Positions 13,437 to 36,035 of a stretch of 39,747 nt of DNA are shown in pieces (the first letter of the stretch is position 1; each line of letters begins with the position of its first letter). A program made the position numbers and the translations under genes. The stretch is from Escherichia phage Vec13. The DNA lies in sequence record NC_048023.1. One strand, given 5' to 3'. The notes below the pieces were generated by a model. The model saw only the letters and a program-made list of their open reading frames with translations. It had not been told where the DNA came from and did no database searches.

Positions 13437-15608
13437 ATGTTTGACCTTAAGAGTATCTGGGGTTCTGACATCGAGACCAACGGTCTCCTTGATACAGTCT
13501 CCCAGTTTCACTGTGGGGTCCTGATTAACGCCGAGTCGAATGAGACCCTTAAGTATGGGGTAGCTCCGATGGTCGGTATCGTCGGCGGCTTCAAAGAGTA
13601 TGTTCATAAAGTGGAAGAGATTGCCGCATCACCTGATGGTATGCTGGTATTCCATAACGGTATCAACTATGACGTCCCGGCTATAGACAAGCTGAAGCGT
13701 TTGTACTTTGGGAAACGCTTTAACTTCCCGAAACATAAGATGATTGATACCTTGGTGCTGGGTCGCTTGATGTATCCAAACATTAAGTTCTCAGACATGG
13801 GCGCGGTGAAAGCTGGTCGTCTGCCACCTAAGATGATGGGACGCCAGTCTCTTGAGGCTTGGGGCTATCGTCTCGGTGAGATGAAAGGTGAGTACAAACA
13901 CGATTACGTTGCCAAGTGCAAGGCTGAAGGTATCGAATATAAGGCTGGGGACGAATGGTTGTTCCCGTCTCAGGAGATGCTGGACTATAACGTTCAAGAC
14001 GTTGTGGTCACACTGGCGTTGTTCAAGAAGTTCCTGACTGACAAGTATTACTTCCAGTCTGAACAGTTCGCTTTCGACCAGATTTATGCGTTGCGTCTGG
14101 AACATGATGCTGCGTGGACCTGTGCGAAGATGGAGCGTAACGGCTATCCGATGAACACCGAGATGGTCGAAGGCTTATATCGTGAACTCACTGTCAAACG
14201 TGCAGAGTTGCTGGACAAGCTGCGTTCGACTTTCGGTAGCTGGTACGCACCAAAGGGAGGCAAGGAGTTCTTCAGGCATCCACGGACAGGTAAGGACCTT
14301 CCGAAGTATCCGAGGGTCGTGTATCCTAAGGTCGGTGGCATCTTTAAGAAGCCGAAGAACAAAGCTCAACGCTTATGTCTTGAACCTTGTGAACGCGATA
14401 CGCGAGACACGATGGAAGGAGCACCATTCACGCCAATCACTTACGTTGAGTTTAATCCGGGAAGCGGAGACCACTTAGCGAAAGTCCTGATGGAGCGTGG
14501 CTGGGAGCCTGTTGACTTCACTGACACCGGGAAACCTGTAGTCGATGACGAGACGTTGGAACACGTTAAGTTACCAGACGCAGAGGCTCAGGCTTGCGTA
14601 GAGCTGGTCCGTGAGTATCTGGTAGTCCAGAAGCGCATCGGACAGGCTGCTGAAGGTAAGAACGCATGGTTGAAACTTGTAGGTCCAGACGGACGTATGC
14701 ACGGTTCAATCAACCCTTGTGGAGCAGTAACCGGACGTGCGACCCATAGTTCACCAAACATGGCTCAGGTCCCGGCTAACGGTGCTCCGTATGGTGAGAC
14801 TTGCCGTGGTGCTTTCGGTGCAGCGTGGAACAAGAAGGATGGCAAGCCAGACCCTTGGATTCAAGTAGGTGTGGATGCTTCAGGTCTTGAGCTTCGTTGT
14901 CTGGGGAACCGTGCGTCTCCGTTCGATGGTGGCGAATACGCGAAGACTGTGGTCGAAGGTGACATCCACTGGGCCAATGCGGTCAACGCAGGGTTAGCAC
15001 CTAACGTCCCACGCAATAAGTCCAGCCACGACCATGATGCTTTCCGTAACAACGCTAAGACGTTCATCTATGCGTTCCTATATGGTGCAGGGGCCGCGAA
15101 GATTGGACTGATAGTTGGCGGTGGTAAGAAGGAAGGTTCAGCTCTCATGAAGAAATTCATTGAGGGTACACCAGCCATCAAGGACCTCAGGGAAGCTGTC
15201 AGTAATACGTTAATCTCGGACTCTAAGTGGGTAGACGGTGAGAACATCGTGAAGTGGAAACGCCGCTGGCTGAAGGGTCTGGATGGTCGTCGCATTCACA
15301 TCCGGTCCCCGCACTCAGCACTTAACGCCCTACTTCAGGGTGACGGTGCGGTGGTCTGTAAGCACTGGATAGTCGAGACCGAGCGTATGCTTGAAGAAGC
15401 TGGCTATGTCCACGGCTGGGAAGGTGACTTTGCGTACATGGCTTGGGTTCACGACGAATTGCAAATTGCGTGTCGTACTCAGGAGATTGCCGAAGAAGTC
15501 GTCAAGATTGCTCAACTTGCTATGCGTAAGGTGGGCGAGTTCTATAACTTTAAATGCGTCCTTGACACCGAAGGGAAGATTGGACCAACGTGGAAGGAGT
15601 GCCATTGA
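13437..15608 (+). CDS. DNA polymerase (T7 gp5 homolog, family A with 3-5 exonuclease)
   Basis: 723 aa; DIETNGLL exo motif, LEAWGYRLGEMKGEY, GAVTGRATHSSPNMAQVP, GVDASGLELRCL, RDNAKTFIYAFLYGAG, AYMAWVHDELQ match T7 DNAP. Confidence 0.98.
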   Translation: MFDLKSIWGSDIETNGLLDTVSQFHCGVLINAESNETLKYGVAPMVGIVGGFKEYVHKVEEIAASPDGMLVFHNGINYDVPAIDKLKRLYFGKRFNFPKHKMIDTLVLGRLMYPNIKFSDMGAVKAGRLPPKMMGRQSLEAWGYRLGEMKGEYKHDYVAKCKAEGIEYKAGDEWLFPSQEMLDYNVQDVVVTLALFKKFLTDKYYFQSEQFAFDQIYALRLEHDAAWTCAKMERNGYPMNTEMVEGLYRELTVKRAELLDKLRSTFGSWYAPKGGKEFFRHPRTGKDLPKYPRVVYPKVGGIFKKPKNKAQRLCLEPCERDTRDTMEGAPFTPITYVEFNPGSGDHLAKVLMERGWEPVDFTDTGKPVVDDETLEHVKLPDAEAQACVELVREYLVVQKRIGQAAEGKNAWLKLVGPDGRMHGSINPCGAVTGRATHSSPNMAQVPANGAPYGETCRGAFGAAWNKKDGKPDPWIQVGVDASGLELRCLGNRASPFDGGEYAKTVVEGDIHWANAVNAGLAPNVPRNKSSHDHDAFRNNAKTFIYAFLYGAGAAKIGLIVGGGKKEGSALMKKFIEGTPAIKDLREAVSNTLISDSKWVDGENIVKWKRRWLKGLDGRRIHIRSPHSALNALLQGDGAVVCKHWIVETERMLEEAGYVHGWEGDFAYMAWVHDELQIACRTQEIAEEVVKIAQLAMRKVGEFYNFKCVLDTEGKIGPTWKECH

Positions 15609-16059: not shown

Positions 16060-16265
16060 GCGAATACTTACGGGTCCTTGCGGCCCTTAAGTCCTGCCCG
16101 AAGACCTTCCAGTCCAACTATGTGCGCAACAACGCTGCACTTGTGGCTGAGGCTGCGAGTCGTGGACATCTAAGCTGCCTGTCTATGGATGGGCGTAACA
16201 ACGGTGCGTGGGAGATTACCGCTGAAGGCACCAAGTTCCTGAACCAACACGGAGGCTGTCTATGA
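16056..16265 (+). CDS. gp5.7-like protein
   Basis: 69 aa; LKSCPKTFQSNYVRNNAALVAEAASRGH...GAWEITAEGTKFL closely matches T7 gp5.7. Confidence 0.85.
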   Translation: MSEYLRVLAALKSCPKTFQSNYVRNNAALVAEAASRGHLSCLSMDGRNNGAWEITAEGTKFLNQHGGCL

Positions 16266-16540
16266 GTCAACAACCTTTTGATTTTCTGGGCCAACCTATC
16301 GAAGTGGGCGACAAGTTCGTATACGCTGAGGCTGGTGGACGTGGTGGTACAATGGCGCTACACTCTGGTGTCGTCACACGGATGACTGAGAAGCAGGTGC
16401 TGGTGGAGAAGACCAGATGGGGCCAGACTTGGCGTCCATTTAACTGCATCGTCATTGTAGAGAAGTGCGGTCCAGGCGAGGAGCCTCTTCTAGGAGCAAC
16501 CTTATCGATGGCTAAAGGAGGTCTGGACGATGGGTGCTGA
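16262..16540 (+). CDS. Hypothetical protein (92 aa) at the gene 5.9 position
   Basis: SD ggagg; no resemblance to T7 gp5.9 as I recall it. Confidence 0.5.
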   Translation: MSQQPFDFLGQPIEVGDKFVYAEAGGRGGTMALHSGVVTRMTEKQVLVEKTRWGQTWRPFNCIVIVEKCGPGEEPLLGATLSMAKGGLDDGC

Positions 16541-17525: not shown

Positions 17526-17548
17526 ACTAAACTATCACTATAGGGACT
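17526..17548 (+). promoter_or_regulatory. Phage RNAP promoter (phi6.5-like)
   Basis: ctaaACTATCACTATAGGGact; +1 G at 17543. Confidence 0.85.
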
Positions 17549-18530: not shown

Positions 18531-18771
18531 ATCAATCAGTAAGGCATTCAAGAAAGTGGTGAAAAGTACGCTAGGGACCGTTGGTCTTGGCTCTGATGAC
18601 GCACCTAAGGTTGTTGAGGCTCAGACCCCAGCAGCACCAGTGGAAGTACCGAACGACAAAGTGGAGGATGTGGATACTGAAACAACCGCATCTGACGAGA
18701 AGAAAGTGAAGCGTTCCGGTAAGCGTAACCTTCAGGTCTCTCGCACCTCTGGTGGCGGTATTTCTATATGA
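18523..18771 (+). CDS. gp7.3-like tail/host-range protein (GTG start)
   Basis: 82 aa; MGKSISKAFKKVVKS basic N-terminus and C-terminal SRTSGGGISI match T7 gp7.3 (MGKKVKKAVKK ... SSGGGINI); SD aaggag. Confidence 0.8.
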   Translation: MGKSISKAFKKVVKSTLGTVGLGSDDAPKVVEAQTPAAPVEVPNDKVEDVDTETTASDEKKVKRSGKRNLQVSRTSGGGISI

Positions 18772-19160
18772 CACCATGTCATGAATGGGGTGGATACTGC
18801 ACCAAGGATGGCTACGGTGAAACTAGGGTAGATGGGCGCAAGGTTCGCGTTCATCGCCTAGAGTGGACGAAACACTACGGACCCATTCCGCATGACAAAG
18901 TGGTTCGCCACAAGTGTGACAACCCTAAGTGTTTTAATATTGAACACCTAGAGTTAGGGACAACACAGGATAACACGGCTGACAGAGTGTCTCGTGGTCG
19001 AAGCGCCAAAGGAGAGGATAACGGTAACGCCGTCCTCACTATTGATATTGTTAATGAGATTCGCGAAAGTAGCATGTCTCAGCGCAAAATAGCGAAGACC
19101 TATGGAGTGTCACAGTCTACCGTATCTAAAATCAAACGCAATGTAACGTGGAGGTCATAA
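18768..19160 (+). CDS. HNH homing endonuclease with C-terminal helix-turn-helix
   Basis: 130 aa; VHRLEW...VRHKCDNPKCFNIEHLELGTTQDN is an HNH nuclease signature; C-terminal SQRKIAKTYGVSQSTVSKI is HTH-like. Confidence 0.85.
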   Translation: MTPCHEWGGYCTKDGYGETRVDGRKVRVHRLEWTKHYGPIPHDKVVRHKCDNPKCFNIEHLELGTTQDNTADRVSRGRSAKGEDNGNAVLTIDIVNEIRESSMSQRKIAKTYGVSQSTVSKIKRNVTWRS

Positions 19161-21713: not shown

Positions 21714-21736
21714 ACTAAACTATCACTATAGGGAGA
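21714..21736 (+). promoter_or_regulatory. Phage RNAP promoter (phi10-like, full consensus incl. GGGAGA)
   Basis: ctaaACTATCACTATAGGGAGAcc; best match to T7-family class III promoter downstream GGGAGA; directly upstream of major capsid gene. Confidence 0.9.
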
Positions 21737-21838
21737 CCAAGAGACAGACTCAAGGTTTCCCTATTACTTCAGTCCATACGGATTGGGCGTACAGTAAGTA
21801 ATATACTTTATCTTTCAATTGAATAGGAGAATTATCAT

Positions 21839-22888
21839 ATGGCAAACGTTCCGGGTCAGAAAGTTGGTACAGACCAAGGTAAGGGTAAGTCCTCTACCGA
21901 CGCACTAGCACTGTTCCTTAAGGTCTTCGCTGGTGAAGTCCTGACCGCCTTTACCCGCCGCTCTGTGACATCCGACAAGCATATCGTCCGCACCATTCAG
22001 AACGGCAAGTCTGCTCAGTTCCCGGTAATGGGCCGCACCTCTGGTGTGTATCTGGCCCCAGGTGAGCGCCTGAGCGATAAGCGTAAGGGTATCAAACATA
22101 CCGAGAAGGTCATCACCATTGATGGTCTGCTGACCGCTGACGTGATGATTTTCGACATCGAAGACGCCATGAACCACTACGATGTGGCTGGCGAGTATTC
22201 CAACCAGCTGGGTGAGGCTTTGGCTATCGCCGCTGATGGTGCGGTACTGGCTGAGATGGCGATTCTGTGCAACCTACCTGCTGCATCCGACGAGAACATC
22301 GCTGGTCTTGGCAAGGCGTCTGTGCTTGAAGTAGGCACTAAAGCAGACCTGAACACTCCAGCCAAGCTGGGCGAAGCAATCATCGGTCAACTGACCATCG
22401 CTCGTGCGAAGCTGACTTCCAACTATGTACCTGCTGGGGACCGATACTTCTACACCACGCCGGACAACTACTCTGCGATTCTGGCTGCTCTGATGCCTAA
22501 CGCTGCTAACTACGCTGCGCTGATTGACCCTGAGACGGGCAACATCCGTAACGTAATGGGCTTCGTTGTGGTTGAAGTTCCGCACCTGACTCAGGGTGGC
22601 GCTGGCGAGACTCGTGGTGACGATGGTATCTCCATTGCTTCTGGTCAGAAACATGGATTCCCTGCTACCTCTAGCTCTACCGTTAAGGTTGCGCTGGACA
22701 ACGTGGTGGGCCTGTTCTCTCACCGTTCTGCTGTGGGTACTGTTAAGCTGCGCGACTTGGCGCTGGAACGTGACCGCGACGTTGATGCTCAGGGCGACCT
22801 GATTGTCGGTAAGTACGCGATGGGTCACGGCGGTCTGCGCCCAGAAGCAGCAGGCGCACTGGTTTTCACAGCAGCGTCAGCGGGCTAA
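21839..22888 (+). CDS. Major capsid protein (T7 gp10A homolog)
   Basis: 349 aa; LALFLKVFAGEVLTAF, HTEKVITIDGLLTADV, YAALIDPETGNIRNVMGF, AVGTVKLRDLALER, KYAMGHGGLRPEAAGA match T7 gp10A. Confidence 0.98.
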   Translation: MANVPGQKVGTDQGKGKSSTDALALFLKVFAGEVLTAFTRRSVTSDKHIVRTIQNGKSAQFPVMGRTSGVYLAPGERLSDKRKGIKHTEKVITIDGLLTADVMIFDIEDAMNHYDVAGEYSNQLGEALAIAADGAVLAEMAILCNLPAASDENIAGLGKASVLEVGTKADLNTPAKLGEAIIGQLTIARAKLTSNYVPAGDRYFYTTPDNYSAILAALMPNAANYAALIDPETGNIRNVMGFVVVEVPHLTQGGAGETRGDDGISIASGQKHGFPATSSSTVKVALDNVVGLFSHRSAVGTVKLRDLALERDRDVDAQGDLIVGKYAMGHGGLRPEAAGALVFTAASAG

Positions 22889-23151
22889 CGACCTTTAAGG
22901 CCCTCTCTACAGAGGGTCCTACCTTAGAGACATATAGTTCTACGGTGGGGACCAGCTTGAAGGTTGACTTCCCTGAGCTTTCAGATGTGACCGATTGGTC
23001 GCTGCTCGATGTGACTACGCCTGAGGGTGTTAGTTACTCCCGTAGAACCAACAGTCTCTACTTCAAGGCCACCTCTGGCGTGGAAGGTCTGGTGATTGTT
23101 GGGTATGACGGTTCGCCTGTGCGTTCCTTCAACGTATCTTTCACAAACTAA
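21839..23151 (+). CDS. Minor capsid protein (gp10B-like) via programmed -1 ribosomal frameshift at 22861..22867
   Basis: Slippery heptamer G GTT TTC near end of 10A, same as the T7 gene 10 site as I recall it; -1 frame open from 22813 to stop at 23151, adding about 95 aa. Confidence 0.55.
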
Positions 23152-23154
23152 TTG

Positions 23155-23195
23155 AAACCCCTTGGGTGCCTTCGGGTGCTTGAGGGGTTTTTTGC
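23155..23195 (+). terminator. Tphi-like terminator for phage RNAP
   Basis: aaCCCCTTGGGTGCCttcgGGTGCTTGAGGGGtttttt: GC-rich hairpin with G-U pairs and ttcg loop followed by T6; same position and architecture as T7 Tphi. Confidence 0.8.
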
Positions 23196-23315
23196 TTAAT
23201 GATGAGGAGGGACTATGTTCCTTATTTACACATGGTTAGTACTATTCGTCTTATTCTGGTCGTACCTGCTGCCAAGCTCACCGTCCAGCCCATATGACCG
23301 TTAAGGAGTAAACCT

Positions 23316-23882
23316 ATGCCTCAATACATTCCACTGAATGCTAACGATGACTTAGACGCCATCAACGATATGTTAGCTGCTATCGGTGAACCAGCAGTCC
23401 TACAGCTTGACGAAGGTAACGCTGACGTCTCGAACGCTCAACGTATCCTGCATCGTGTTAATCGTCAGGTCCAAGCTAAAGGCTGGAACTTTAACATCAA
23501 CGAAGCTGCTGTCCTGACGCCTGATGTCCAAGACAACAGGATTCGATTCCTGCAGTCTTACCTTCGGGTCATGACTGCTGGTGCTACCAGTTACTACAGC
23601 AACATGGGGGGCTATCTCTATGACCTGTCCACTCAGTCCACGACCTTCACTGGACCAATTACAGTCGAACTGGTGGAGATGAAACCGTTCGCTGAGATGC
23701 CTGTAGTATTCCGTGACTACATCGTTACCAAGGCTAGCCGTGAGTTCAACGCTAAGTTCTTCGGTAGCCCAGAGTCTGAACTGTACCTTCGTGAGCAGGA
23801 AGCAGAACTCTACCAGCAGGTGATGGAGTACGAGATGGACACTGGTCGCTACAACATGATGTCCGACATCGGGAGGGACTAA
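23316..23882 (+). CDS. Tail tubular protein A (T7 gp11 homolog)
   Basis: 188 aa; IGEPAV, RILHRVNRQVQAKGWNFNI, VTKASREFNAKFFG, MEYEMDTGRYNM match T7 gp11. Confidence 0.95.
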   Translation: MPQYIPLNANDDLDAINDMLAAIGEPAVLQLDEGNADVSNAQRILHRVNRQVQAKGWNFNINEAAVLTPDVQDNRIRFLQSYLRVMTAGATSYYSNMGGYLYDLSTQSTTFTGPITVELVEMKPFAEMPVVFRDYIVTKASREFNAKFFGSPESELYLREQEAELYQQVMEYEMDTGRYNMMSDIGRD

Positions 23883-24109
23883 TGGCTAGTCACAACCTGA
23901 AGATTCACCGCCAGCACTTTGGTCCGGTACAACTAGGTCTAAAGACAGCAGAGCTGAGACTTAACGACCGGGACTTTAAGGTTGGCGACTGGCTTATCCT
24001 GAATGAGTGGGACAACGGGTATACTGGACAACAGGTAGCACGTAAGGTTGTCCACATTGATGACGTTGGTGACATCGCTGAGGGATACGTCCTAATGAGT
24101 ATGATTTAA
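23882..24109 (+). CDS. Small protein (75 aa) inserted between tail tubular genes; possible DUF3850/ASCH-like fold
   Basis: SD gggaggg; motif LRLNDRDFKVGDWLIL resembles DUF3850 family proteins; no T7 counterpart between genes 11 and 12. Confidence 0.55.
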   Translation: MASHNLKIHRQHFGPVQLGLKTAELRLNDRDFKVGDWLILNEWDNGYTGQQVARKVVHIDDVGDIAEGYVLMSMI

Positions 24110-24118
24110 GGAGGGCCT

Positions 24119-26476
24119 ATGCCACTAATTACTCAATCAATCAAGAACCTTAAAGGCGGTATTAGCCAGCAGCCAGACATACTGAGGTTCTCAGACCAAG
24201 GCGAGGAGCAAGTTAACTGCTGGTCATCCGAAAGTGATGGACTCCAGAAGCGTCCACCTACAGTCTTCAAGCGACGTCTTGACATCGACGTTGGGAGCAA
24301 CCCTAAGTTCCACCTGATTAACCGTGATGAGCAGGAGCAGTATTACATCGTGTTCAACGGGTCCAACATTCAGGTAGTCGACTTGAGCGGTAATCAATAC
24401 TCAGTTTCAGGTGCGGTAGACTACGTTAAGTCGTCCAACCCGCGAGATGACATCCGTGTCGTTACAGTTGCAGACTATACGTTCATCGTGAACCGTAAGG
24501 TTGTCGTTAACGGTGGAAGCGAGAAGTCACACTCTGGTTATAATCGTAAAGCTCGTGCTTTAATTAACCTGCGTGGTGGACAGTATGGTCGCACCCTTAA
24601 GGTAGGAATCAACGGAGGCGTTAAGGTTTCGCATAAGCTGCCAGCAGGTAATGATGCCGAGAATGACCCACCTAAGGTGGATGCTCAGGCCATCGGTGCA
24701 TCTCTGAGAGACCTTCTTGTTGCTGCTTACCCTACCTTCACGTTCGACCTTGGGTCTGGCTTCCTGTTAATCACTGCCCCTTCAGGGACTGACATTAACT
24801 CAGTGGAGACGGAGGATGGCTACGCTAACCAGCTAATCAGCCCAGTCCTAGACACGGTGCAAACAATCTCTAAGTTGCCTCTTGCGGCTCCAAATGGGTA
24901 CATCATTAAGATTCAAGGTGAGACCAACAGTAGCGCCGATGAATATTACGTGATGTATGACTCCAATACTAAGACGTGGAAGGAGACAGTAGAGCCGGGA
25001 GTGGTCACTGGGTTCGATAACACCACAATGCCACATGCTCTGGTGAGACAATCTGACGGCTCCTTTGAGTTCAAGACTCTGGACTGGTCTAAGCGGGGTG
25101 CTGGTAATGATGACACAAACCCTATGCCTAGCTTCGTGGATGCTACGATTAACGATGTGTTCTTCTACAGGAACAGGCTAGGGTTCTTGTCAGGAGAGAA
25201 CGTAATCATGAGCCGTTCAGCCAGCTACTTTGCGTTCTTCCCTAAGAGTGTGGCGACATTGAGTGATGATGACCCTATTGACGTAGCTGTAAGTCACCCT
25301 AGAATCTCAATACTTAAGTATGCCGTTCCGTTTAGCGAGCAGCTACTACTTTGGTCAGATGAGGTGCAGTTCGTGATGACAAGCTCAGGGGTCCTTACCT
25401 CGAAGTCTATCCAGCTTGATGTGGGCTCAGAGTTTGCCTTAGGTGATAACGCCAGACCGTTCGCTGTAGGACGCTCAGTCTTCTTCTCAGCGCCTCGTGG
25501 GTCATTCACCAGTATTAAGCGATACTTCGCTGTAGCAGATGTGTCTGACGTGAAGGATGCCGATGATACCACTGGTCACGTACTGTCCTATATCCCTAAC
25601 GGGGTGTTTGACATTCAAGGTACAGGGACTGAGAACTACATCTGCGTCAACTCTACAGGTGCATACAACCGAATCTACATCTACAAGTTCTTGTTTAAGG
25701 ACGGCGTACAACTTCAAGCCTCTTGGTCGCACTGGGAGTTCCCTAAAGCTGATAAGATTCTGGCGTCTGCGTCGATTGGCTCTACCATGTTCATTGTTCG
25801 TCAGCACCAAGGGGGTGTGGACATTGAGCACCTTAAGTTCATCAAGGAGGCAACCGACTTTCCATTAGAGCCGTATAGACTCCACGTTGACTCCAAGGTG
25901 TCTATGGTAATCCCAAGTGGCTCATATAACGCTGACACCTATGAGACTACGGTCGACATTGGTTCTGCTTATGGTGGAAACGCTCCGTCTCCCGGTCGGT
26001 ACTATCTGATTGACAGTCAGGGTGCCTATGTGGACCTTGGTGAACTGACCGACATCTCAACTGTGGCTATACTCAATGGCGATTGGTCGGGACGTACAGT
26101 GTTCATCGGACGGTCTTATCTGATGTCCTACAAGTTCTCACGGTTCCTGATTAAGATTGAAGACGATAGTGGCACTCAGTCTGAAGACACTGGACGTCTA
26201 CAGCTTCGTAGGGCTTGGGTCAACTACAAGGACACTGGCGCTCTTAGACTCATTGTCAGAAACGGTGAGCGGGAGTTCGTGAACACCTTTAATGGGTACA
26301 CCATTGGTCAGCAAACCATCGGGACTACCAACATTGGGGATGGACAGTATCGCTTCGCTATGAATGGTAACGCATTAACCACGAGCCTAACCTTAGAGTC
26401 AGACTATCCTACCCCAGTGTCCATCGTTGGGTGTGGCTGGGAGGCGTCATACGCTAAGAAAGCTCGTTCCGTCTAA
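24119..26476 (+). CDS. Tail tubular protein B (T7 gp12 homolog)
   Basis: 785 aa; QSIKNLKGGISQQPDILR, VTVADYTFIVNR, NDVFFYRNRLGFLSGEN, LQLRRAWVNY, GCGWE match T7 gp12. Confidence 0.98.
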   Translation: MPLITQSIKNLKGGISQQPDILRFSDQGEEQVNCWSSESDGLQKRPPTVFKRRLDIDVGSNPKFHLINRDEQEQYYIVFNGSNIQVVDLSGNQYSVSGAVDYVKSSNPRDDIRVVTVADYTFIVNRKVVVNGGSEKSHSGYNRKARALINLRGGQYGRTLKVGINGGVKVSHKLPAGNDAENDPPKVDAQAIGASLRDLLVAAYPTFTFDLGSGFLLITAPSGTDINSVETEDGYANQLISPVLDTVQTISKLPLAAPNGYIIKIQGETNSSADEYYVMYDSNTKTWKETVEPGVVTGFDNTTMPHALVRQSDGSFEFKTLDWSKRGAGNDDTNPMPSFVDATINDVFFYRNRLGFLSGENVIMSRSASYFAFFPKSVATLSDDDPIDVAVSHPRISILKYAVPFSEQLLLWSDEVQFVMTSSGVLTSKSIQLDVGSEFALGDNARPFAVGRSVFFSAPRGSFTSIKRYFAVADVSDVKDADDTTGHVLSYIPNGVFDIQGTGTENYICVNSTGAYNRIYIYKFLFKDGVQLQASWSHWEFPKADKILASASIGSTMFIVRQHQGGVDIEHLKFIKEATDFPLEPYRLHVDSKVSMVIPSGSYNADTYETTVDIGSAYGGNAPSPGRYYLIDSQGAYVDLGELTDISTVAILNGDWSGRTVFIGRSYLMSYKFSRFLIKIEDDSGTQSEDTGRLQLRRAWVNYKDTGALRLIVRNGEREFVNTFNGYTIGQQTIGTTNIGDGQYRFAMNGNALTTSLTLESDYPTPVSIVGCGWEASYAKKARSV

Positions 26477-26500
26477 CTTATTGAAGGGCCTATAGATTTA

Positions 26501-26523
26501 CCTTAACTATCACTATAGGGACT
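26501..26523 (+). promoter_or_regulatory. Phage RNAP promoter (phi13-like), flanked by 12-bp inverted repeat
   Basis: ccttaACTATCACTATAGGGact; aagggcctatag (26484..26495) and ctataggccctt (26522..26533) are perfect reverse complements. Confidence 0.85.
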
Positions 26524-33846: not shown

Positions 33847-35877
33847 ATGTCCACGATTACACAATTCCCTTCAGGAAGCACTCAGTACAGGATTGAGTTC
33901 GACTACCTAGCCAGAACGTTTGTTGTTGTTACGCTGGTGAATAGCTCTAACCCTACCCTGAACCGTGTACTGGAAGTTGGTCGAGATTACCGATTCCTTA
34001 ATCCAACGATGATTGAGATGTTGGTTGACCAATCAGGTTTCGACATCGTTCGCATTCACCGTCAGACTGGAACTGACTTAGTGGTAGACTTCAGGAATGG
34101 CTCAGTGTTGACAGCTAGTGACCTGACAAATTCAGAGCTTCAGGCTATCCATATTGCAGAAGAAGGTCGAGACCAAACGGTTGACTTAGCGAAGGAATAT
34201 GCCGATGCTGCTGGTAGCTCTGCTGGCAACGCTAAGGATAGCGAGGACGAAGCACGCCGAATCGCTGAGAGTATCAGGGCGGCTGGTCTAATTGGTTATA
34301 TTACCCGTCGCTCCTTCGAGAAAGGCTACAACGTTACAACATGGAGCGAGGTCCTGCTATGGGAAGAGGATGGTGATTATTACCGCTGGGATGGTACGCT
34401 TCCAAAGAACGTTCCTGCTGGTTCAACTCCTGAAACTTCCGGTGGGATTGGATTAGGTGCGTGGGTTAGTGTTGGTGATGCTGCTTTAAGAAGTCAGATT
34501 TCAAACCCGGAAGGGGCAATACTCTACCCAGAATTACAGATGGCGCGCTGGCGAGATGAGGGTGATGTTCGCGGATGGGGTGCTAAAGGTGATGGTTCTG
34601 CGGATGATACAGAGGCTTTCAAGGCAGCACTGGCAACAGGAAAGAATCTATATATCCCCGTTGGTATATACATCATTAAAGAGACTTTGTACTTTAAGAA
34701 CCAAGTTATTAAAGGTGGGGGAATATCTCCATCACCAAGTCTTGGTACAATCCTAGCAATCTCTCACAATGAAGCAGCTTTTAAGTATGACGTTAACTCT
34801 GGATACTCCATGGGTGGCTACTTAGGCGGTTTCTTCATTGATTATGGTGAGAACAAGCCAGACAACTATGGTGGTCGCAAAGGTATTGATATTGGTGATG
34901 CATCGCAGACAGCATGGCCTTCACAATTTATCATTGAGAACATCATAGTACGTGGTGCGTACTTTGGTATTCATGACGTGACAGGGGCTTTTCAGTATAC
35001 CATGCGTAACGTATTGGCGATTAATTGCTGGGAAGGTTTCCGTAAGCATATTGGTACTACAGTCCTAATGGATACATGCTACGCACTTAATTGTTATCAG
35101 GCGTTCAATTTTGCAAACGTGTACAACATGACTATGAACAATTGTGCAATGGACGGCTGTAATGATATACAAGGTCTACAGGCTTTTGATATTAACAACT
35201 GTAAAGGTATGGTAATAAATGGCATGTACAGCGAGAACTGTGAGATTCATCATAATGGACATGCCTCTATATATATTCATGGGGACTCAACAGTAACACT
35301 TAACGGATATGCACTACATTCCCACAAAGTTCTGGCTAGTTCTGGGGAGGCTTACTTCTTACGAGCACATGAAAGTTCTCGCGTTACTGTTGATGGTATC
35401 TTCTTCGGGGAAGACCTGACGTCTACTGCTGTATTCATGTACCCAGTCCTGTCTTCTGGGGATGCTAGAGTTAAGCTTGGAACTACTAGATTGAAGTTGT
35501 GGACTGGTGCTACGGGTGGGGCGTCACTGGCTGCACTAGGTAACAGTTTGATTGAGTATGACAACACAGTCTTTGTTCCAACAGTCACGGTCGGATGGTG
35601 TAGCAACAACGGAGTTGTAGCCAAAGGTACTCTTGCAGTTAACACTACGCTTGAACCAGGTGCTGACCTGAATGCCGGTAATATTACCCTCACTGGTGAC
35701 TACAAGCCAACTAAGGGGGATGTGCTTGTGTATGGTGCTACCTTTGATGTTAAGTCATGTTCAATTATTCTCAAGCCAATAGGGGAGAATTTATGTAATG
35801 TGTACATTAAGAACTTAAGTGCAGGTGGTAGTGCTACTCTTCTTGGTGACTTGATGGTACAGGCCATCCGACGCTAG
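33847..35877 (+). CDS. Tailspike/tail fiber: T7 gp17-like N-terminal adaptor plus pectate-lyase-like beta-helix (putative polysaccharide depolymerase)
   Basis: 676 aa; N-terminus FDYLARTFVVVTLV, DYRF, IHIAEE match T7 gp17; from about residue 240 WGAKGDGSADDTEAFKAAL and repetitive G/N/C-rich stretches typical of pectate lyase superfamily tailspikes. Confidence 0.9.
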   Translation: MSTITQFPSGSTQYRIEFDYLARTFVVVTLVNSSNPTLNRVLEVGRDYRFLNPTMIEMLVDQSGFDIVRIHRQTGTDLVVDFRNGSVLTASDLTNSELQAIHIAEEGRDQTVDLAKEYADAAGSSAGNAKDSEDEARRIAESIRAAGLIGYITRRSFEKGYNVTTWSEVLLWEEDGDYYRWDGTLPKNVPAGSTPETSGGIGLGAWVSVGDAALRSQISNPEGAILYPELQMARWRDEGDVRGWGAKGDGSADDTEAFKAALATGKNLYIPVGIYIIKETLYFKNQVIKGGGISPSPSLGTILAISHNEAAFKYDVNSGYSMGGYLGGFFIDYGENKPDNYGGRKGIDIGDASQTAWPSQFIIENIIVRGAYFGIHDVTGAFQYTMRNVLAINCWEGFRKHIGTTVLMDTCYALNCYQAFNFANVYNMTMNNCAMDGCNDIQGLQAFDINNCKGMVINGMYSENCEIHHNGHASIYIHGDSTVTLNGYALHSHKVLASSGEAYFLRAHESSRVTVDGIFFGEDLTSTAVFMYPVLSSGDARVKLGTTRLKLWTGATGGASLAALGNSLIEYDNTVFVPTVTVGWCSNNGVVAKGTLAVNTTLEPGADLNAGNITLTGDYKPTKGDVLVYGATFDVKSCSIILKPIGENLCNVYIKNLSAGGSATLLGDLMVQAIRR

Positions 35878-36035
35878 AAATGTACGCATGGATTCGCTGA
35901 GGTGGTTATCCATGAAGAGGGTGAGGAGTGGGGTGTAGATGTTAGAAGGTTGTGGAGGTAGAGGCTAACTACACGCTAACCAACGTAGGGTAACAACTTT
36001 GGGTCACGGACGACCCGCTTTAAACTGGAGGTTTT

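Follow-up and report, generated by a model that had tools for sequence, protein, structure and literature searches.

A stand-alone DUF3850 gene inserted between tail genes 11 and 12 of Escherichia phage Vec13 is probably an accessory, non-structural gene with a putative base-binding pocket

The window analyzed here is the complete 39,747-nucleotide stretch of Escherichia phage Vec13 (NC_048023.1), which belongs to Kayfunavirus, the K1F-like Studiervirinae of the T7 group. At the locus of interest, gene 11 (23316..23882, + strand), encoding the 188-residue tail tubular protein A, is followed by a 75-residue open reading frame (23882..24109, + strand, ATG start; 8.6 kDa, pI 6.0) that encodes a stand-alone DUF3850, or minimal ASCH, domain. 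Gene 12 (24119..26476, + strand), encoding the 785-residue tail tubular protein B or nozzle, lies directly downstream; in homologous loci the two neighbors carry the Pfam domains Tube and Phage_nozzle respectively. The ATG of the DUF3850 reading frame (23882-23884) shares a base with the gene 11 stop TAA (23880-23882), giving TAATG, and its Shine-Dalgarno sequence GGGAGGGA (23871-23878, + strand) is located about 5 nt 5' of the ATG, within the last codons of gene 11. This Shine-Dalgarno and the TAATG overlap (23871..23884, + strand) constitute the left copy of an imperfect direct repeat. At the opposite end, the TAA stop (24107-24109) overlaps a second Shine-Dalgarno, AAGGAGGG (24108-24115, + strand), which precedes the gene 12 start at 24119. 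The right repeat copy, AAGGAGGGCCTATG (24108..24121, + strand), comprises this second Shine-Dalgarno and the gene 12 ATG and came with the 237-bp insert described below. Across the junctions the window reads ...ATCGGGAGGGACTAATGGCT... The initial annotation had reported a 75-residue reading frame with an overlapping stop and start and a good ribosome-binding site, and the TAATG overlap together with the strong GGGAGGGA make that description exact.

The DUF3850 reading frame is a genuine gene under purifying selection. Its GC content is 48%, and its GC content, GC3, codon adaptation and codon usage resemble those of the neighboring genes, while its homologues maintain a length of 75-76 residues down to 64% identity. 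A chance reading frame at 23882-24109 was rejected on the basis of matches to Pfam and PHROG profiles, the existence of homologues and the suppression of nonsynonymous substitutions. Because every phage promoter identified lies on the + strand, the 56-residue antisense frame at 23905..24075 was considered a shadow frame. The fold of the RNA from 23860-24130 (z=-2.14; equalled by 3 of 200 shuffles) is too weak for a claim of structure, and homologues of this interval are too similar for covariation analysis. Scans of the whole window with Rfam (at gathering thresholds) and for tRNAs returned no matches.

Expression was evaluated from the promoters and terminators of the window. The phage promoter core TCACTATAGGGA is found at 17535, 20735 (one mismatch), 21723, 26510, 33786 (one mismatch) and 38905. 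The nearest phage RNA polymerase promoter upstream of the DUF3850 gene is phi10 (21723..21734, + strand; compare the EcoDS1 annotation), the next promoter 3' of it is phi13 (26510-26521, + strand), and the scan of the window located no phage promoter core between the two. A T-phi-like terminator, consisting of a hairpin and a T-run (23158..23193, + strand), is positioned 3' of the capsid gene, and its equivalent is annotated in EcoDS1. With the exception of this hairpin, a scan for sigma-70 promoters and terminators demonstrated no excess over shuffled sequences. Given the promoter-free interval from 21723 to 26510 and the terminator at 23158-23193, we infer that the DUF3850 gene is transcribed late with genes 11 and 12 through read-through of the T-phi-like terminator. 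Its translation is probably coupled to that of gene 11, as judged from the overlapping stop and start. Small reading frames are also present between the capsid gene and gene 11. A 68-residue frame with a GTG start (22945-23151, + strand) follows the capsid gene stop and has no Pfam match; it is called in relatives (2668-2874 of locus L087, with Ro103_37 similarly placed) and corresponds to the '10B-like' region of EcoDS1. A 29-residue hydrophobic frame (MFLIYTWLVLFVLFWSYLL...; 23215-23304, + strand) lies in the gap separating gene 11 from the T-phi-like terminator, follows a strong GAGGAGGG Shine-Dalgarno and likewise lacks a Pfam match. The intergenic stretch around it is the most variable of the region among relatives (pi 0.37-0.49).

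Database comparisons place the gene among well-sampled relatives. The junction region, taken as 1401 nt including the flanks of the DUF3850 reading frame, shares 97% identity with Escherichia phage LM33_P1; it matches 213 phage records, nearly all of them Kayfunavirus. A blastn search with the reading frame alone matched 163 phage records, and in the 30 of these 163 matches that were listed the genomes are approximately 38-41 kb, except for one 78.7-kb record. Nucleotide identity is 95% or higher in 144 of the 163 copies; over the 1401-nt region with its flanks, that level is attained by only 25 of the 213 records, and the flanks are mostly 90-95% identical across database records. By tblastn, the protein of phage UFJF_EcSW4 is 100% identical to the product of the window, and about 130 records encode products that are 95-99% identical. 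A record with a 100% identical protein means that the gene is already known, and it is in fact annotated in about 160 related phage genomes. In RefSeq its name is 'RNA-binding protein' (as for YP_002003774.1 of EcoDS1, encoded between genes 11 and 12), other records list a 'DUF3850 domain-containing protein' or a 'hypothetical protein', the numbering of CR44b makes it gene 11.05, and the Hafnia phage Ca paper presents the product as a 75-residue hypothetical protein. Literature searches identified no paper assigning a function to DUF3850 and no virion proteome for a Kayfunavirus that carries the gene; the only proteomes found are those of Citrobacter phages SH3 and SH4, both of which are without it.

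Comparison with K1F revealed how the gene is accommodated. In K1F, which has no DUF3850 gene, the stop codon of gene 11 overlaps the start codon of gene 12 (...GGGAGGGACTAATGCCGCTT...), and GGGAGGGACTAATGCC runs straight into gene 12. At this junction the window exceeds K1F by exactly 237 bases, in agreement with the earlier proposal of a small gene inserted where genes 11 and 12 abut in T7. The imperfect direct repeat bounds the insert on both sides, with GGAGGGACTAATG at 23872-23884 on the left and GGAGGGCCTATG at 24110-24121 on the right; its 12-13-nt consensus is GGAGGG(A/C)CTA(A)TG, and 11 of 12 positions match, with one gap. A sequence identical to the Shine-Dalgarno and start of the DUF3850 reading frame serves gene 12 in K1F. 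The 237-bp cassette takes over the K1F-type ribosome-binding site of gene 12 and brings a near-copy for gene 12 itself.

When the K1F junction was used as the query, three junction states were observed within Kayfunavirus: empty, plus 237 bp, and DUF3850 accompanied by an Endonuclease_7 gene. The plus-237-bp state is found in most Kayfunavirus records. Empty junctions occur in about 24 of the best 60 Kayfunavirus records, including K1F, YZ1, ZG49, IME177, Pipis and Zappy, with flanks that are 95-100% identical to K1F. The junction of Ro103C3lw is also empty, with an 11-nt spacer and conserved gp11 and gp12, and a published gene table lists SH3 and Dev2 without the DUF3850 gene. The third state is represented by Hafnia phage yong1, in which DUF3850 is followed by an Endonuclease_7-domain gene. 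In Kp_Pokalde_002 and KP2-1 of the sister genus Przondovirus, a homing endonuclease or endonuclease VII gene occupies the 11/12 junction. The empty junctions together with the endonuclease VII and HNH genes at this position identify the 11/12 junction as a recurrent insertion site, an insertion hot spot. The endonuclease VII gene of yong1 (840-1280 of locus L004) starts behind GGAGGTGATATG, and gene 12 of Ro103C3lw (1080-1092 of locus L003) and of SH3 is preceded by an identical ribosome-binding site and start context. This shared context suggests that the endonuclease gene of yong1, too, entered precisely at the start codon of gene 12.

Additional differences from K1F were noted elsewhere in the window. 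A 130-residue HNH_3 plus HTH endonuclease gene (18768-19160, + strand) lies between gene 7.3 and gene 8 (portal), overlaps or abuts its neighbors and is absent from K1F (a 395-bp insertion), which makes it a second late-region cassette with the architecture of the DUF3850 insert. A 92-residue frame without a Pfam match (16262-16540, + strand) overlaps both of its neighbors, genes 5.7 and 6, within 271 bp inserted relative to K1F. In K1F the DNA polymerase gene is split by an HNH endonuclease insertion, which the window lacks (15451-15453). The distal part of the tail-spike gene (34612-35932) does not align with the endosialidase region of K1F, implying a receptor specificity that probably differs from that of K1F. 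The initial annotation had called a non-structural gene within the tail operon unusual. This was overstated, considering the 163 phage records that carry the gene, the endonuclease genes at the same junction and the HNH gene between 7.3 and 8, the last of which weakens the claim for the late operon as a whole.

The position of the gene raises the question of whether its product could be a tail-assembly chaperone or a minor virion component acting with gp11 and gp12. The gene lies inside the tail-tube operon, is apparently coupled to gene 11 and has no promoter of its own; it is also kept at the 11/12 position over deep divergence, and late co-expression with the tail proteins would fit an assembly role as well. 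It is absent, however, from K1F, YZ1, ZG49, Pipis, Ro103C3lw and others despite their conserved gp11 and gp12. The absence from K1F and about 20 close relatives, in which the gp11 and gp12 flanks are 95-100% identical DNA, indicates that the gene is likely dispensable for building the tail. Moreover, the fold is ASCH/PUA-like, the junction also accepts endonuclease genes, and the family is huge (see below) and extends to siphoviruses, myoviruses and bacteria, with replication neighbors and DNA-binding fusions. The structural-protein reading was therefore rejected for patchy presence beside conserved gp11 and gp12 and for the non-structural context of the family; a role in the tail is very unlikely. 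We consider it highly probable that the DUF3850 protein is accessory and non-structural rather than a part of the tail.

Substitution patterns were subsequently used to evaluate how the gene has been maintained. Copies with 73% and 67% amino acid identity to the window protein (P0024 and P0027) were located between Tube (gp11) and Phage_nozzle (gp12). In these two genomes gp11 is 94% and 92%, the DUF3850 product 73% and 67%, and gp12 70% and 71% identical to the window, so that the gene has diverged together with its surroundings, about as much as gp12. Against the 73%-identical copy, dN/dS is 0.14. The pN/pS of the DUF3850 reading frame is 0.19 among 14 unique sequences and 0.12 among ten close genomes, while gene 11 gave approximately 0.03-0.06 and gene 12 gave 0.07 (the latter in the ten close genomes). 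These values point to purifying selection on a long-resident gene. In ten close Kayfunavirus genomes, pS of the DUF3850 reading frame is 0.10 versus 0.25 for genes 11 and 12, a 2.5-fold reduction that rests on about 49 synonymous sites, and it falls below all 34 equal-sized windows of the two neighboring genes. The low pS could reflect recent horizontal spread of one allele, constraint at the nucleotide level, or noise. Of these, recent spread is plausible given that homing endonucleases also visit the junction.

Such spread would also be expected of a selfish or hitch-hiking cassette that moves by recombination or homing at the 11/12 junction with little or no benefit to the phage. Homing-type endonuclease genes at the junction, in yong1 directly adjoining DUF3850, the imperfect 12-13-nt repeat that bounds the insert, and the low pS along with the near-identity of the 144 copies are all in line with this explanation. 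Only DUF3850/ASCH was detected in the product itself, however, with no HNH, endonuclease VII, GIY-YIG or LAGLIDADG domain and no recombinase domain. The purifying selection, the retention of all family-invariant residues and the co-divergence of the diverged alleles with gp12 argue further against a cassette without benefit, which we regard as quite unlikely; mobility and usefulness can coexist.

Profile searches established the identity of the product. Pfam DUF3850 (PF12961) was matched at E=2.4e-19 (69.7 bits; cutoff 22.9), with residues 4-73 covering profile positions 2-76/77. Pfam ASCH (PF04266, PUA-like clan) scored 26.2 bits against a cutoff of 21.2, over the N-terminal 61 of 103 profile positions only. 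PHROG 986, labeled 'RNA-binding protein', was matched at E=3.9e-34, and no NCBIfam model matched the product. The only solved relative by sequence is PDB 3IUW (E=1.6e-10 for a single-sequence query, 3.3e-19 for a profile query). The product shares the fold of 3IUW, the solved structure of the family, and is a PUA-like beta-barrel as in characterized ASCH proteins. Confidence in the AF2 model is lowest at residues 21-30 (block pLDDT 61), which counts against the pocket mechanism discussed below. The motif LRLNDRDFKVGDWLIL, from which DUF3850/ASCH membership had initially been proposed, corresponds to residues 25-40. A profile search without similarity to DUF3850/ASCH and absence from relatives had been named as grounds for refuting it; scores above both Pfam cutoffs, the 3IUW match and its fold, and numerous relatives clearly uphold the proposal. 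Membership of the window protein in the DUF3850/ASCH family is close to certain.

The family is far larger than its close matches indicate. A word-indexed protein search gave 29 close matches, and a back-translated pattern scan of genome contigs, with patterns that were too specific, returned 6 loci; the extent of the family was visible only in an exhaustive profile search, which recovered 16,034 cluster representatives (50% identity) at E<=1e-3 and 5,296 at E<=1e-10. Residue frequencies were taken from 154 representatives of the 50%-identity clusters. In this family alignment H4, K7, K21, E24, R26, N28, D29, R30, G35, D36, E42 and G49 are at least 97% conserved, Y69 and S73 are at least 93% conserved, and the window protein retains all of the near-invariant residues. 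Its segment G19-L-K21-T-A-E24-L-R26 fits the pattern GxKxxExR, which Iyer et al. reportedly described in 2006 as the ASCH motif. The presence of so many near-invariant charged residues within about 75 positions suggests that the protein has a dedicated pocket or active site instead of a general affinity for nucleic acids. The K/E/R triad of the ASCH motif is confirmed in a preprint on human EOLA1 (bioRxiv 10.64898/2026.08.01.741249).

The contexts of DUF3850 in other phages further inform its possible targets. In about 60 other IMG/VR viral loci its neighbors are helicase, primase, NinB, NinG, Holliday-junction resolvase and endonuclease VII/HNH genes, in addition to D12 and N6_N4 DNA methylases and Mom. 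Among the 150 best family representatives, 102 are multidomain, with DUF551 as partner in 11 cases and dATP/dGTP pyrophosphohydrolase, LexA_DNA_bind, MarR, Crp-HTH and DUF7415 in a single case each. One viral locus carries a DnaA_C HTH-DUF3850 fusion (2033-2731 of locus L065). A published survey (PNAS/bioRxiv) found ParB-CTPase-DUF3850 fusions to be enriched in phages and uniquely paired with parA, and an anti-defence action of the ParB-DUF3850 fusions has been suggested in the literature. The family occurs in siphoviruses, myoviruses and bacteria, and its contexts are replication, recombination or DNA-binding, none of them structural. If the database label were taken literally, the product would be a sequence-nonspecific RNA binder acting on phage late mRNA or host RNA. 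That label is a transferred prediction, the protein has a pI of 6.0, and the fusion partners and neighbors are DNA-related; furthermore, the ASCH protein YqfB is stated to have no intrinsic RNA-binding activity (bioRxiv 10.64898/2026.08.01.741249). RNA binding is consequently not particularly favored, DNA or nucleotides would be at least as likely as targets, and a nonspecific RNA binder is highly improbable.

A purpose in counter-defence was also considered, in which the protein would bind or destroy a nucleotide signal or a modified base of a host defence, or shield the target of that defence. Patchy presence among near-identical phages is typical of such genes, and the small single domain has highly conserved polar residues in its putative pocket. 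In bacteria, members of the Glu-type 'TRIP4-like' ASCH clade are reported to occur in association with operons for restriction-modification and base modification (bioRxiv 10.64898/2026.08.01.741249), and the anti-defence suggestion for the ParB fusions points in the same direction. The predicted expression is late rather than early, however, and the search with PADLOC gave only a 35-residue match (E=0.0027) that was judged to be noise. This explanation overlaps with the one preferred below, the mechanism being the same and the purpose alone differing; as a separate explanation it appears unlikely.

The explanation that best accommodates these results is that of an accessory, non-structural phage gene encoding a stand-alone DUF3850 protein, a minimal ASCH or PUA-like beta-barrel, carried at an insertion hot spot, made late and equipped with a conserved base or nucleotide pocket. 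We assign this reading as a whole a probability of roughly 0.6. Its 237-bp cassette sits at the gene 12 start codon, using the Shine-Dalgarno shared with K1F gene 12 and supplying a near-copy in exchange. The protein would be made late from the read-through capsid and tail transcript, probably coupled to the translation of gene 11. A putative ASCH pocket formed by K21/E24/R26 with H4, K7, N28-D29-R30, D36, E42 and Y69 would then hold a flipped-out or free base. Most likely the base would be a modified one that is either read or hydrolyzed, comparable to the deacetylation of N4-acetylcytidine by YqfB and EOLA1, and the protein may act on DNA or on the nucleotide pool instead of RNA. No experiment on any DUF3850 protein was found in the literature, and the biochemical step is therefore argued by homology; this base-pocket mechanism is offered as tentative. 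More speculatively, and with rather low confidence, DUF3850 might not bind RNA at all but be a Glu-type minimal ASCH enzyme or reader of modified bases in DNA or in the nucleotide pool that arises as the phage breaks down host nucleic acids, serving nucleotide sanitation or counter-defence; its Kayfunavirus copy would then have swept horizontally through the genus in recent times. Such a sweep could have used recombination at the repeat around the gene 12 ribosome-binding site, perhaps with the homing endonucleases of the same junction as carriers.

The window itself is of little consequence, as it contributes a correctly recognized and already annotated accessory gene from a well-sampled phage genus. 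DUF3850, by comparison, is a very large phage-associated family with near-invariant charged residues and no experimental function in the literature. An engineerable 40-kb T7-like phage whose natural relatives lack exactly the 237-bp cassette represents about the simplest system in which to address DUF3850 function, and finding that function would also show whether 'RNA-binding protein', the name applied wholesale by RefSeq and PHROGs, is right. If the modified-base reading is true, the natural plus and minus phages, about 95% identical around the junction, would constitute a ready-made system for the function of the family.

Several known systems resemble the Vec13 gene in part. The Kayfunavirus gene 11.05 (EcoDS1, UFJF_EcSW4, ORF36 of Hafnia phages Ca/yong1, CR44b) matches the Vec13 gene in both identity and position, the copy in the window being a further allele without differences of substance. 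Homing-endonuclease insertions in late operons of the T7 group (Przondovirus 11/12; EcoDS1 gene 13.5) are likewise placed at a start codon with overlapping or abutting frames, and the Przondovirus endonuclease VII/HNH insert occupies the very site of the DUF3850 reading frame; unlike these insertions, the DUF3850 reading frame has no nuclease domain. PDB 3IUW is an 83-residue 'activating signal cointegrator' of the Enterococcus faecalis EF_1231 type, a bacterial or prophage protein. YqfB (PDB 1TE7/9KYF) is an N4-acetylcytidine amidohydrolase with the catalytic residues Lys21, Thr24, Arg26 and Glu74 (PMC9599836), and it is only 19% identical to the window protein. An hhalign comparison, performed with a YqfB sequence that agrees with 1TE7, placed window K21/E24/R26 on YqfB K21/T24/R26 in an alignment covering YqfB residues 10-49. 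Lys21 and Arg26 thus have their counterparts in K21 and R26, whereas the Thr24 nucleophile is replaced by E24 (Glu is 98% conserved at this position in DUF3850) and the 75-residue protein has no C-terminal segment equivalent to that bearing the Glu74 acid. A YqfB-type amidohydrolase identity was rejected, as the Glu in place of Thr24 and the missing Glu74 segment indicate that the window protein is not a YqfB-type enzyme; relative to YqfB it also has the extra invariant residues H4, K7, N28-D29-R30 and E42. Human EOLA1, of the Glu-type 'TRIP4-like' clade, is reported to deacetylate free ac4C via K21/E24/R26 (bioRxiv 10.64898/2026.08.01.741249); that preprint cites another group as having found murine EOLA1 inactive on ac4C. 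A sequence search starting from the window protein did not recover EOLA1, and position 7, compared by collinearity with YqfB only, is K7 in the window protein (97% Lys in the family) versus Ser/Thr in the clade. The window protein has the same K21/E24/R26 triad as EOLA1, with the Glu that is absolutely conserved in the clade, in a domain about half the size. By analogy with EOLA1, a Glu-type ASCH pocket that takes a flipped or free modified base, and possibly hydrolyzes it, would be a reasonable model for DUF3850.
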